The translations under genes and the position numbers were made by a program. A DNA stretch of 64,000 nt from an uncultured Actinomycetota bacterium (GTDB lineage Bacteria > Actinomycetota > Actinomycetes > JAHEKZ01), in the NCBI GenBank assembly GCA_963829525.1, contig CAWHIJ010000003.1, positions 2,208,001-2,272,000 of the forward strand, given 5' to 3'. How positions within the stretch are numbered: position 1 is the stretch's first letter; every line of letters begins with the position of its first letter. The notes under the pieces were generated by a model, which was not told the DNA's origin, did not search any database, and saw only the letters and a program-made list of their open reading frames with translations. Below are positions 4,271-7,423 of the stretch, one piece after another.

Positions 4271-4909
4271 TTACGCGGCTCGGGACCAGCCTTGGCATCC
4301 GGTGCGGCATCTGACTGTCGACGCACCATCGTCGTGCAAGCCGTCGTCGTGCACGCCGTCAGCTGGCAACGTCCACGGGCGCTTGACGAGGCGGGAGCCG
4401 GCTATCTTCTGCGCGCCGTAAAAGACACCGATGACGATCAACGCGTCCCCAAAGCTGAAGACGTTGGCGAAGGGCAGGGGGTCTGGCCAGACAAAGATAT
4501 CGCCGAAGAGCGGCAGCACCGGATCCTTGAGCACCCCCGAGTTGACGAACTCACCCTTGGCAAGGTCGATGCCAGCCATCTGCAGCGCCGACTTAGAGGC
4601 TGGCAGCTGACCACCGTTGAGTGCGATGGTGATGCCGTTCATCGCCCCGCCAGCAGCAATGATGATCAGCCCGGGGATCCTCCAGTTGATCGCCACGAAG
4701 ACACCGGCCGCCACATACGTCGCCATGTGAACCGCTTCCAGAAGGGTGCGGTCTGCCTCAGGGAAGATCTCGATGATGAGGATCTGCGCAAGAAGCGCTA
4801 CCACCAAGATCCACCACGCCTTGAAGCGCACATACGCAAGACGAGAGAGCTTCCCCCCGAAGAGGAGAGGGCTGACGAGCGCAAGAATGCAGAGGACGAG
4901 AACCAGCAT
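4271..4909 (-). CDS. DUF5317-like integral membrane protein
   Basis: About 5-6 hydrophobic segments; pattern N-x6-NGGxxP...GDIF...NVFSxGD recognised from memory as DUF5317; TGATG overlap with upstream GGDEF-EAL stop. Confidence 0.75.
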   Translation of the reverse strand: MLVLVLCILALVSPLLFGGKLSRLAYVRFKAWWILVVALLAQILIIEIFPEADRTLLEAVHMATYVAAGVFVAINWRIPGLIIIAAGGAMNGITIALNGGQLPASKSALQMAGIDLAKGEFVNSGVLKDPVLPLFGDIFVWPDPLPFANVFSFGDALIVIGVFYGAQKIAGSRLVKRPWTLPADGVHDDGLHDDGASTVRCRTGCQGWSRAA

Positions 4910-7038
4910 CAGCTGCTCCCTACCAGACGAAGGGAAGAAGGAGCTGCGCTCGTGCGGTTCACCCGACGTTGCTCGACCACCTCGACGACTGAGTCGGGGG
5001 CCATCGGCCGCCCAATGTGATAACCCTGAGCGACGTCACAACCGAGCCCTTCAAGCCACGCCAGTGTGTCGCCGTCCTCGACCCCCTCGGCCACGATCCG
5101 GAGTCCGAGGTTGTGCCCGAGCTCAACAGTCGACGCCACGATGATGGCGTCACTGGACTGGGTATCGAGATCCATGATGAATGAGCGGTCGATCTTCAGC
5201 TCGTCGATGTCGAACTGCTTAAGGTAGTTGAGCGAGGCGTGACCTGTTCCGTAGTCATCGATAGAGACCTCGACGCCGATCCGCCGAAGCTGCTGGAGAA
5301 CGACGGAGGCTCGTTTGGGGTCGGTCATGATGCTGCTCTCGGTCACTTCGATGACCAGCTTGGAGGGAGCAACCCCCCACCGTTCCAGGGCCACGGCGAT
5401 GCGGTCGGGCAGACTCATGTCCGTAAGGTGCCGGACCGAGAGGTTGACGGCAACTGACAAATCGATCCCGGCCTCGTGCCAGGTGCGTACCTGACGGAGC
5501 GCCCGCTCGACAACGAAGAAGGTGATGGGGGCGATCAGTCCGGTGTTCTCCGCGAGCGGGATGAAGGTGTCGGGGTACTGAATGCCGCGAGTGGGGTGGT
5601 TCCATCGGACAAGCGCCTCAACGCCACGCACCTCGCCGCTGGCAACATCGATCTTGGGTTGGTACACAAGGAAGAGTTGATCGTCTTCGACAGCGGACCG
5701 AAGGTCGGTGAGGGTCGTCAACCGTTGCGGGGTGTGAGTGTCTTCATCTTCGTTGGAGTACGCACAGAATCGAGCCCTTTCCCGCTTGGCTTCGTAGAGA
5801 GCGATGTCGGAGCGACGCATGAGGGTGTGGACGTCGTCGCCGTGGTCGGGGGCCAGTGCAATGCCGAGGCTGGCCTGAACCACCAGCCGAACACCGCCGA
5901 CCGAGAAGGACTTACCAAGCACCGAGAGAAGGTAAGTGGCGACGTCCTCGGCCACTGACAGGTCAGGGATGTCTGGCAGCAGCACGGCGAACTCATCGCC
6001 GCCCAGGCGCGCAACGGTGGCCCCTTCCGGCCGTGCCTCCTCCAGGCGGTTTGCCACCTCACAGATCAGTTCGTCACCGACCTGGTGGCCAAGAGTGTCA
6101 TTGATCTCCTTGAAGTGGTCAAGGTCGATCATCATGATCGCCAGGGCCTGGCCCGACCGTTGCGAGTCCTCCAGAGCTCGTACCGAGCGATCGCGGAACA
6201 GCTCACGGTTGGCCAGGCCGGTGAGGGCATCATGACTGGCCTGACGCCCCATGGCGACCGCAAGCTTGGCGCTGTTGTAAACAGCAGCGATCGGCGCCAA
6301 CAGCATCGGCAGCATGAGGGGCTGCGTCTGCACGACGAGGGCAGCGACCGGAGCGAGGATGGCCAGCACTCCGGCGGTCATCGCCTGGAAGCGGAGGTCG
6401 GCGAGGAAGATCGGGCTCACACGTTGACCGGAGTCGATGGCGACGACTGTCGAGACCAAGATCTGGTTGACCACCAAGAACGCGGCCGCGGCGACCAGGG
6501 CCGCAAAGAGCTCGAGCGGTACCGGGTCGAAGGTGTTGTACGGGCCGAATACCGGTTCCCCGGCAACCAGGGAGTAAACGCTGTGGGCCGCCATGACGGT
6601 CAGAACGTACTGTGAAGCGTTGAAGGCGATCTTCAGCGGCGAACGCCGCGAAATCGCGTCGTCGATGATCACCGCGACAGCCTGTGCCACCACTGCAAGA
6701 CTGACTGGGCCAACAATCGCCAAGGTCAGCGTGAAGGTCGTCGAAATGGTGATCATGTCTGCGGTGTCCCCACCGCGGGGGACCGGTACCGGCCGCAGCT
6801 CGCCGACAACTACGGCGATGACCAGGATCGTCACAACCAGGCCCTGGGAGGGATAGTCTCCCCAAGCACCTACCCCCACAGCCTCTTGGATCGGAGCAAG
6901 GACCAGCGAGGCCCCCAGCGCCAAGGACGCCGTCCCGATGACCCCCCATATGTACACACCGAGCGCCCACTTGGGGCGACGCGGAAAGGGAGCCACCGAT
7001 CCATCGGTGGCTCCCCCCTCGTGCGCTAGTTGGCCCAC
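4909..7038 (-). CDS. Membrane-anchored diguanylate cyclase / phosphodiesterase (multi-TM sensor + GGDEF + EAL)
   Basis: About 260-aa hydrophobic N-terminus; HDALTGLANR, DLDHFKEIND, RLGGDEF; EALVRW, IDDYGTG, KIDRSF, AEGVE, QGY; start codon uncertain. Confidence 0.92.
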   Translation of the reverse strand: MGQLAHEGGATDGSVAPFPRRPKWALGVYIWGVIGTASLALGASLVLAPIQEAVGVGAWGDYPSQGLVVTILVIAVVVGELRPVPVPRGGDTADMITISTTFTLTLAIVGPVSLAVVAQAVAVIIDDAISRRSPLKIAFNASQYVLTVMAAHSVYSLVAGEPVFGPYNTFDPVPLELFAALVAAAAFLVVNQILVSTVVAIDSGQRVSPIFLADLRFQAMTAGVLAILAPVAALVVQTQPLMLPMLLAPIAAVYNSAKLAVAMGRQASHDALTGLANRELFRDRSVRALEDSQRSGQALAIMMIDLDHFKEINDTLGHQVGDELICEVANRLEEARPEGATVARLGGDEFAVLLPDIPDLSVAEDVATYLLSVLGKSFSVGGVRLVVQASLGIALAPDHGDDVHTLMRRSDIALYEAKRERARFCAYSNEDEDTHTPQRLTTLTDLRSAVEDDQLFLVYQPKIDVASGEVRGVEALVRWNHPTRGIQYPDTFIPLAENTGLIAPITFFVVERALRQVRTWHEAGIDLSVAVNLSVRHLTDMSLPDRIAVALERWGVAPSKLVIEVTESSIMTDPKRASVVLQQLRRIGVEVSIDDYGTGHASLNYLKQFDIDELKIDRSFIMDLDTQSSDAIIVASTVELGHNLGLRIVAEGVEDGDTLAWLEGLGCDVAQGYHIGRPMAPDSVVEVVEQRRVNRTSAAPSSLRLVGSS
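6988..7015 (-). terminator. Strong hairpin (terminator/attenuator-like) between peptide genes and body of GGDEF-EAL gene
   Basis: Minus strand GGGAGCCACCGA-TGGA-TCGGTGGCTCCC followed by TTT; perfect inverted repeat. Confidence 0.55.
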
Positions 7039-7130
7039 TTCTTTCCGGCTCCAACTACCGATGCCAAGGTCAGCACCGTTGCGGCGCTGCCCAGCACGGA
7101 AACGATCACACGGGCTTTGATCTGGTCCAT
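7026..7130 (-). CDS. 34-aa putative signalling-peptide precursor 2: MDQIKARVIVSVLGSAATVLTLASVVGAGKKWAN
   Basis: ATG at 7130 preceded by GGAGGCGAGGAT; TAG at 7026-7028; same length and C-terminal motif as the adjacent peptide. Confidence 0.8.
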   Translation of the reverse strand: MDQIKARVIVSVLGSAATVLTLASVVGAGKKWAN

Positions 7131-7141
7131 ATCCTCGCCTC

Positions 7142-7246
7142 CTAGTTCATCCACTTGGTACCGGCACCGACCACCGAAACCAGGACCATAAGTCCGGCCG
7201 CAGCGGCGCTACCGCGCACCACCAATTCCTTGGTTACCTTGTTCAT
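7142..7246 (-). CDS. 34-aa putative signalling-peptide precursor 1: MNKVTKELVVRGSAAAAGLMVLVSVVGAGTKWMN
   Basis: ATG at 7246 preceded by GGGAAGGGGAG SD; TAG at 7142-7144; basic N-region, hydrophobic core, SVVGAGxKWxN tail. Confidence 0.8.
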   Translation of the reverse strand: MNKVTKELVVRGSAAAAGLMVLVSVVGAGTKWMN

Positions 7247-7423
7247 CGCTCCCCTTCCCAAATCAGTCGCGACGATTGGGGAGCCGAAGACTCAACCCCC
7301 CTGCGTAATGATGTCGTTCCGCAGGGTGACTTCGTTAGACGGCCAAATGGGTGAACACAGAGTGTCATCTTGGCTACTCAGAGCGATACTTGCAGGTCAG
7401 CGTCGCGCCCTGACTGGGTAGAA

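Follow-up and report, generated by a model that had tools for sequence, protein, structure and literature searches.

What is the role of two very small genes that lie directly ahead of a predicted membrane enzyme for cyclic di-GMP (c-di-GMP) turnover? This question is raised by a minus-strand locus (4271-7246) in a stretch of 64,000 nucleotides (nt) of contig CAWHIJ010000003.1, from an uncultured Actinomycetota bacterium, hereafter called the window. Two open reading frames (ORFs) of 34 amino acids (aa), here named pepA (type A) and pepB (type B), are followed by a GGDEF-EAL membrane protein, the sensor enzyme, and by a membrane protein of the family DUF5317. The original prediction, made from the sequence alone, regarded this locus as a counterpart of agr quorum sensing, in which DUF5317 would process a precursor and the sensor enzyme would perceive a short, released Trp-containing peptide. 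Its description of the locus proved accurate: the four genes are co-oriented and tightly packed, the sensor TGA and the DUF5317 ATG share one base (TGATG), and both short ORFs carry a strong Shine-Dalgarno site and a common SVVGAGxKWxN tail. The mechanism fared less well. The reading favoured here, to which we assign a probability of about 50%, is that the mini-proteins are membrane-resident single-helix partners of MASE9-type sensors and work together with DUF5317.

Both mini-proteins are built alike: a short basic flank at the N-terminus leads into some 18-22 apolar residues, with many Ala, Gly, Ser and Val among them, and VVGAGxKWxN follows. No Pfam or NCBIfam model matches either ORF. A loose regular expression for the C-terminus, applied to the whole genome (six frames, 2.96 Mb), returned four ORFs only, namely the pair in the window and one other pair. 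The same four were recovered by a profile of 20 orthologues at E-values of 8e-16 to 5e-7 (pepA 1.2e-15, pepB 8.1e-16), with the next match at 0.14. On the DNA level, a strict back-translated VVGAGxKW pattern gave three sites in the window genome and one in 400 other genomes, the reversed-pattern control giving two. Each of the 12 same-family loci that were fetched whole (seven from the window genus, five from other genera) has a type A and a type B ORF as a pair. Three more families of the class carry a single copy, which the scan detected in one case and inspection by eye in the other two. Between genera, most pairs have a ratio of nonsynonymous to synonymous substitution (dN/dS) of 0.05-0.4 (0.06-0.4 for pepA) and a few go as high as 0.9; synonymous sites are close to saturation. 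A Shine-Dalgarno-like tetramer is located 4-17 nt upstream in 91 of 104 distinct members versus 18% of random positions, a contrast that is overstated because the choice of start codon favoured codons having such a motif. The Shine-Dalgarno sequence of pepA, GGAAGGGGAG, also precedes its orthologues. The mini-protein genes exist, are conserved and are under constraint at the protein level.

The family is not confined to these relatives. Against 1.84 billion representative proteins, the profile matched 120 clusters at E ≤ 1e-3, so the family comprises at least 120 clusters at 50% identity. Of the representatives, 87 have at most 40 aa, and not one is longer than 100 aa; the 120 include no long or fused form. 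Since most members have 24-36 aa, at or below the usual limits of gene calling, the family is largely invisible in annotation. The 76 close homologues of pepB (33-70 aa) carry no family name and are at most called 'hypothetical protein', and a search of the ESM Atlas with pepB returned unnamed small clusters only, with scores of 0.88-0.89, under the 0.9 set for a lead. In 111 of the 120 representatives, the C-terminus reads [GA]A[GPN]xK[WF] followed by 0-3 residues. Among these 111, the tail after the Trp has no residue in 16, one in 62, two in 24 and three in nine, and a Pro follows the GA in 10. The most distant members have 24-26 aa and end at the Trp or one residue beyond it. The conserved stretch [VA][STA][VT]VGAG is a small-xx-small packing motif. 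By their sequences, pepA and pepB represent an undescribed family of single-helix mini-proteins of 24-36 residues with a predicted placement in the membrane, whose members share a basic N-flank and an apolar helix of 18 aa in which small residues are frequent.

Co-occurrence of the short ORFs with the sensor and DUF5317 had been set beforehand as a check of the original prediction, and it holds within the Actinomycetota, where mini-protein genes are linked to both across several classes. The base sample consisted of 401 evenly drawn Actinomycetota genomes, the window's own included. A broader profile of 86 sequences matched in 30 of them, again with the window's own; two matches (in G203 and G243), lying inside open frames of 587 and 645 aa, were dropped as false before counting. 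DUF5317 occurs in 152 of the 401 genomes and in all 27 other genomes with a credible mini-protein match (24/24 when three unpublished genomes, G057, G159 and G278, are left out). In 27 loci from 24 published genomes, mapped with our own hidden Markov models (HMMs), a MASE9-like gene is located directly downstream on the same strand in 24; of the other three, one runs into a contig end and two are orphans. These HMMs identified a homologue of the window's transmembrane (TM) sensor domain in 23 of the 24; the last one (L075) is a MASE9-HD-GYP protein according to Pfam (49.6 bits). Eleven of the 27 loci have DUF5317 as a neighbour.

The enzymatic output of these sensors is not constant. Among the 24, six carry GGDEF-EAL, seven HisKA-HATPase_c, two GAF-HisKA-HATPase_c (all kinases confirmed by Pfam) and one HD-GYP, with eight left unchecked. 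No response regulator was seen beside the MASE9 kinases that were checked. In family f36, a gene for an ATP-binding cassette (ABC) ATPase comes after the mini-protein and the MASE9-kinase, in place of DUF5317, in all three loci that gave a Pfam hit. Because the same mini-protein precedes GGDEF-EAL enzymes, histidine kinases and HD-GYP proteins, its constant partner is the MASE9-type sensor domain and not the c-di-GMP output.

Two further sets of loci extend this picture. In 39 loci from named records, found by a narrow pattern that reaches close relatives and nearly all from metagenome-assembled genomes (MAGs) of uncultured Actinomycetes plus Aquipuribacter sp. MA13-6, the order mini-protein, MASE9-like GGDEF-EAL, DUF5317 is present in 27, contig ends truncate three, and the remaining nine are orphans. 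Conversely, 20 DUF5317 loci were taken from other families, some with 36-42% GC, and 12 of them have a MASE9-like gene within 4 kb. In five of the 20, ORFs of 24-32 aa lie directly upstream of Pfam-confirmed MASE9-HD-GYP genes and end in G(A/G)xx(K/R/S)W plus at most one residue, or in a more relaxed form that lacks the Trp; their profile matches are weak (E 0.0013 to 1.8), and they were accepted on position, size and composition, a judgement made partly by eye. On plasmid pEDY32-46I of Euzebya pacifica DY32-46, a 29-aa ORF ending in GAPQKWG precedes an annotated diguanylate cyclase/phosphodiesterase gene, which in turn overlaps a gene encoding a DUF5317-EAL fusion. A seeming case outside the Actinomycetota was rejected: with a GC content of 75.8%, the locus on NZ_JAXHCD010000001.1, labelled 'Jannaschia sp. 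R86511', matches that of Aquipuribacter sp. at 81-85% nucleotide identity across some 6.7 kb. Its genus label looks doubtful, and it gives no evidence for the cassette beyond the phylum.

The near-constant position just ahead of the sensor gene, in the same orientation, would also suit a cis-acting leader ORF, whose translation itself controls the downstream gene by coupling or by stalling at the C-terminal motif. This motif adjoins the stop codon, and the GTG of the longest sensor ORF falls within AAG TGG, the Lys-Trp codons of pepB, so that the two frames overlap by 13 nt (7026-7038), as they also do in four relatives (loci L034, L038, L046 and L047). Such a start may reflect true translational coupling or may be a by-product of the conserved codons. 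A leader function nevertheless seems quite improbable, as the amino-acid constraint runs along the entire helix, the paralogous types A and B are kept paired across genera, the distance to the sensor gene ranges from an overlap to some 200 nt, and orphan pairs and arrays exist that have no sensor after them.

The sensor enzyme itself has the multi-TM input and the intact GGDEF and EAL domains that were predicted. Pfam scores are 155.3 bits for GGDEF and 250.5 bits for EAL, and the GGDEF, EAL, DDYGTG and EGVE motifs are all intact in the translation, and no RxxD I-site was seen in the GGDEF domain of the window protein. With 18.0 bits (E 0.0029), the membrane part remains under the cut-off of 24.3 bits for MASE9 (PF20972). 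Homologues of this TM domain, found by our own profile or by phmmer, do pass it (30.7, 26.7, 29.3, 30.8, 41.1 and 49.6 bits, six proteins of the 27 mapped loci), as do six MASE9-HD-GYP genes from the DUF5317 loci of other families (25.7-36.4 bits), and some close homologues are annotated with PF20972 in precomputed records. By sequence homology, the window sensor probably belongs to MASE9 or next to it. As a side observation, the sensor gene is split over at least two frames in the MAG loci L085/L037, L093 and L116, by frameshifts or assembly errors.

In the alignment of the sensor domain, E80, F139, N140 and N191 are invariant and Q143 and Y144 are kept in at least 90% of the sequences. The polar ones among them (E80, N140, N191, Q143 and Y144) are located in helices, which agrees with the binding of ligands inside the membrane that is argued for MASE9 by Galperin and Chou (bioRxiv 10.1101/2021.11.05.467447). 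An AlphaFold2 model of the domain has a mean predicted local distance difference test (pLDDT) of 91.4 and a predicted template modelling score (pTM) of 0.88, and we infer a layout of six helices with both ends in the cytoplasm. When this model was compared to the PDB by Foldseek, the ten best matches were all S-components of energy-coupling factor (ECF) transporters (RibU, FolT, BioY and ThiT), with template modelling scores of 0.54-0.67 normalised to the target and probabilities of 0.89-1.00, at E-values of 0.13-0.55, none reaching 0.001. A search of PDB sequences with the domain gave nothing at E ≤ 1. The model, a statistically weak lead as to fold, suggests a six-helix bundle that binds a small ligand.

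DUF5317 (PF17248) is assigned firmly in the window, with 83.3 bits against a cut-off of 25 and profile positions 2-148 of 151 covered. The AlphaFold2 model (pLDDT 88.2, pTM 0.80) shows five helices in the membrane; a conserved loop covers aa 98-152 and, as the distribution of charges over the loops suggests, faces outward. In an alignment of 48 sequences, N91, N98, P103, D137, P142, P146, S152, G154 and D155 are invariant; D137 and D155, the latter at the start of the fifth helix, are the two GD aspartates pointed out in the original prediction. A GxGD-type intramembrane aspartyl protease was considered for this reason and rejected, as there was no PDB match in fold or sequence. Foldseek gave a best E-value of 4.8 and template modelling scores of at most 0.24 normalised to the query, and the DUF5317 profile found no PDB sequence at E ≤ 1. 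At E ≤ 0.1, Pfam and NCBIfam returned DUF5317 or nothing for this protein, and no AgrB. The literature search yielded no paper that names DUF5317, PF17248, PF20972 or IPR035168.

The distribution of DUF5317 is also much wider than that of the mini-protein (152 of 401 genomes versus about 28), and it was detected in the control genomes of Thermotoga maritima and Thermus thermophilus. It is fused to transporters of the major facilitator superfamily (MFS) in L056, L077, L082 (together with HEAT repeats) and L145, and to an EAL domain on pEDY32-46I (L143). Long frames around DUF5317 in L144, L146, L150 and L049 hold no extra Pfam domain and were taken as spurious extensions at high GC, not as fusions. 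The GC content at third codon positions did not separate real from spurious ORFs in the DUF5317 loci L031, L036, L043, L045 and L049, which were left uninterpreted. Given the absence of a protease match, the MFS and EAL fusions and the far wider spread, DUF5317 looks like a membrane module able to carry transport or signalling domains and not like the dedicated processing enzyme that had been proposed.

Based on these results, the mini-proteins would be co-expressed with polytopic sensor domains of the MASE9 type and remain in the bilayer, where their small-xx-small/GAG face would pack onto the sensor and the Lys-Trp pair would lie at the membrane interface. By this packing, the mini-protein would set or modulate the signalling state of the sensor, the output being the synthesis and breakdown of c-di-GMP by GGDEF-EAL in the window, and a histidine kinase or an HD-GYP phosphodiesterase elsewhere. 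DUF5317, separate or fused to MFS or EAL, would be a third membrane component, probably a co-sensor or a transport-coupled partner and not a peptidase; its fusions fit a membrane module for signalling or transport. What we infer here is that the mini-protein resides in the membrane and binds the sensor directly, along with its topology and the direction in which it regulates. A resident partner is argued for by the constrained part of the mini-protein, which is a helix end with the small-xx-small motif and Lys-Trp, typical interface anchors, by the short, variable and often absent part after the Trp, by the Pro after GA in about 9% of members, and by the smallest members, which are little more than one helix.

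The same features bear on the release of a peptide signal, in which the helix would export or anchor the product and a Lys-Trp piece would be freed by DUF5317 or a general peptidase, exported (in some lineages through DUF5317-MFS or ABC transporters) and sensed by the MASE9 pocket. A small gene directly before a polytopic receptor, histidine kinases included, is the layout of Gram-positive pheromone systems, and the resemblance of the sensor model to small-ligand-binding ECF S-components as well as the multi-copy orphan arrays with their variable tails would fit a released signal. The candidate mature part, however, has only 3-6 residues, of which K and W do not vary; the Trp itself is the last residue in 16 of 111 representatives, and the distant members of 24-26 aa stop there or one residue later. 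Conservation peaks at the helix end and not in the tail that was held to be the signal. A Pro directly after GA blocks type I signal peptidase at that bond, and it stands there in 10 of 111. DUF5317 has its two invariant Asp in or beside a loop predicted to face outward, and the mini-protein occurs only in genomes having DUF5317 (27/27), but the protein has no fold match to a solved peptidase and about 125 sampled genomes carry it without a detectable mini-protein. Transporter genes are fused or adjacent in some cases, yet many loci have neither DUF5317 nor a transporter beside the pair. The released-peptide mechanism is thus weakened, and we regard it as unlikely. A related possibility is that the GAGxKW mini-protein is the input element of MASE9, presenting a tethered or locally released Lys-Trp ligand to an S-component-like pocket, with DUF5317, by itself or as an MFS or EAL fusion, controlling its availability; this is a tentative option and a rather unlikely one.

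Several observations weigh against membrane-resident partners. Because the genomes sampled are related to each other, the counts overstate how many independent cases there are. The topology is only weakly indicated by the charges of the flanks (means of +1.35 for the N-flank and +1.54 for the C-flank, termini uncounted). The DUF5317-MFS fusions and the ABC ATPases of f36 fit the export of a signal equally well, and the S-component-like fold of the sensor suggests a pocket for a small ligand. A further 20 full-length matches to the sensor profile were inspected: with relaxed thresholds, too, no mini-ORF was detectable ahead of 15, and five have divergent ones. These 20 were chosen with a profile that retains the GGDEF-EAL columns and matches in 368 of the 401 genomes, and homology in the TM domain was checked for the paralogue of the window genome only. 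This paralogue, the second GGDEF-EAL gene of the genome (C3:2318257-2320416, minus strand; L142:4257-6416), has neither a mini-ORF nor DUF5317 beside it. Its TM domain is distantly related to that of the window sensor (25% identity over 175 residues, E 7e-6), and it adjoins a gene for an NAD-dependent DNA ligase. A complex prediction for the MASE9-like domain with pepB scored 0.01 against a mark of 0.32, which is no answer and was counted neither way.

Mini-protein genes also occur away from sensors, namely in the second pair of the genome and in the nine orphans of the 39 named-record loci. Orphans and tandem arrays of five or six copies are unexpected for a stoichiometric subunit and add to the points against. 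The second pair (C3:1800698-1800980, minus strand; L051/L055) is placed between a DUF2157 membrane protein and a family-less membrane protein of 121 aa. A TetR gene lies upstream, an M20 peptidase downstream, and the locus is syntenic with L108 and L113. In the orphan arrays L114:4297-5217 (five copies) and L115:4494-5752 (six copies) the two types alternate; no MASE9-like or DUF5317 gene is present in the 10 kb fetched around them.

Tandem pairs and arrays of up to six copies, the 121-aa family-less membrane protein after the second pair and the transporters near the loci of some lineages bring to mind a membrane-active toxin or a leaderless two-peptide bacteriocin, in which these small peptides, cationic and hydrophobic, would damage membranes, with neighbours for immunity or export and the sensor regulating production. 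Leaderless bacteriocins are amphipathic, though, while the mini-proteins have a continuous apolar run of TM length, and their one-to-one place upstream of housekeeping-type sensors is stable across classes. The neighbours of the orphan arrays are not conserved, and no toxin or bacteriocin family was found among the scanned neighbours (Pfam for six window proteins at E ≤ 0.1 and for others at 0.01-0.001; NCBIfam for six window proteins). A toxin role is therefore considered very improbable.

Among known systems, the module would be most like the pairs of a small membrane protein and a sensor. MgrB and SafA are tiny single-pass proteins thought to act on PhoQ within the bilayer. The likeness to them is one of a tiny, predicted single-pass protein genetically linked to a membrane sensor. 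There is no sequence relation, and the mini-protein differs by its place upstream in the same operon, the three outputs and the third conserved membrane protein. Listings from the literature search on small membrane proteins with diguanylate cyclases and on HdgA showed nothing bearing on the cassette.

Gram-positive peptide-pheromone cassettes such as agr (AgrD/AgrB/AgrC), the comC-comD type and the Phr peptides share with the locus a small gene beside a polytopic receptor and a further membrane protein or transporter. Unlike these, the window peptides have no Cys for a thiolactone, no double-glycine leader and no match to the AgrD family, and only 0-3 residues follow the conserved Lys-Trp in the family, two in the window peptides. 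Furthermore, AgrC is a histidine kinase, whereas the window receptor is a GGDEF-EAL protein and kinase versions are found in other lineages. An agr system, the analogy first drawn, was ruled out on three tested features, as neither an AgrB peptidase nor an AgrD precursor nor an AgrC kinase with its response regulator was found. A Phr-like pro-peptide for Sec and signal peptidase was likewise rejected, given the tail of 0-3 residues in 111/111 and the Pro after GA in 10/111.

UhpC-UhpB and BceAB-BceS are pairs in which a transporter and a sensor act together in sensing. The locus resembles them in having a sensor beside a transporter-like protein, with DUF5317-MFS in four loci and an ABC ATPase after the kinase in three. 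The DUF5317 of the window, however, is a stand-alone protein of five TM helices without a transporter domain. ECF S-components resemble the sensor model in the ten best Foldseek matches and the predicted six-helix layout; they differ in showing no sequence similarity at E ≤ 1, and no EcfT or EcfA genes were noted at the loci, which leaves a lead on fold.

The closest known counterparts of the sensor domain are described in the one relevant paper that a literature search on 'MASE9' returned, which covers the TM1467-type MASE9-HD-GYP proteins and HdgA of Streptomyces venezuelae (bioRxiv 10.1101/2021.11.05.467447). These proteins have the same type of polytopic domain, with polar residues in the membrane core, joined to HD-GYP or GGDEF-EAL; the passages considered here differ from our loci in mentioning no upstream mini-protein, DUF5317 or histidine-kinase output. 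Canonical MASE9-HD-GYP genes adjoining DUF5317 were found in the loci from other families.

MASE9 and DUF5317 are widespread membrane domains without a known signal or function. A mini-protein that tracks the sensor domain over three outputs offers a concrete, mutable handle on the control of the sensor and ties DUF5317 to the module, pointing to an undescribed small-protein partner for a poorly understood class of bacterial membrane sensors. The cassette is present in two named records, Euzebya pacifica DY32-46 (plasmid pEDY32-46I) and Aquipuribacter sp. MA13-6, which are possible test systems. If the mini-protein does act as an input element, this would be an unrecognised three-part intramembrane signalling module across the Actinomycetota, and possibly wherever MASE9 and DUF5317 co-occur, feeding both the synthesis and the breakdown of c-di-GMP, hydrolysis by HD-GYP and phosphorylation in two-component systems.

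Table 1. Positions of the cassette, its parts and its neighbours in the window, with the ABC ATPase genes of family f36 given in their own loci.
Feature	Position	Strand	Remarks
pepA, type A mini-protein	7145-7246 (stop 7142-7144)	minus	34 aa from ATG; single hydrophobic helix (predicted); end SVVGAGTKWMN
Shine-Dalgarno of pepA, GGAAGGGGAG	7249-7258	minus	3 nt before the pepA ATG; direct read
pepB, type B mini-protein	7029-7130 (stop 7026-7028)	minus	34 aa from ATG; end SVVGAGKKWAN
Shine-Dalgarno of pepB, AGGAGG	7138-7143	minus	7 nt before the pepB ATG, overlaps the pepA stop codon; direct read
Sensor enzyme, MASE9-like TM domain, then GGDEF, then EAL	4909-7038	minus	709 aa from the longest-ORF GTG; start uncertain
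MASE9-like membrane sensor domain, about aa 24-262	6253-6969	minus	Pfam 18.0 bits (below cut-off), AlphaFold2, alignment
GGDEF domain, aa 267-421	5776-6240	minus	Pfam E 1.5e-45; GGDEF motif intact
EAL domain, aa 445-678	5005-5706	minus	Pfam E 1.8e-74; EAL, DDYGTG and EGVE motifs
DUF5317 membrane protein	4271-4909	minus	212 aa; Pfam E 2.3e-23
Agmatinase	7424-8464	minus	flank
Saccharopine-dehydrogenase/carboxynorspermidine-synthase-like gene	3006-4103	minus	flank
ORF with EAL	1530-2843	plus	437 aa; convergent
ABC ATPase genes of f36	L057:6794-7588, L064:2521-3312, L078:4877-5749

No Rfam match at E ≤ 1 was obtained over 3900-7800, and a scan of the gene strand for promoters and terminators gave nothing exceeding shuffled expectation. 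As listed in Table 1, the cassette is flanked by genes for an agmatinase and a dehydrogenase-like protein. In the same-family loci having both flanks, the order agmatinase, pepA, pepB, sensor, DUF5317, dehydrogenase is kept. By analogy, these flanks could hint at a link to polyamines, for which the polyamine-linked NspS-MbaA system is a parallel. Beyond the dehydrogenase, the convergent ORF with an EAL domain is 31% identical to the EAL of the sensor and is syntenic in nine same-family loci.

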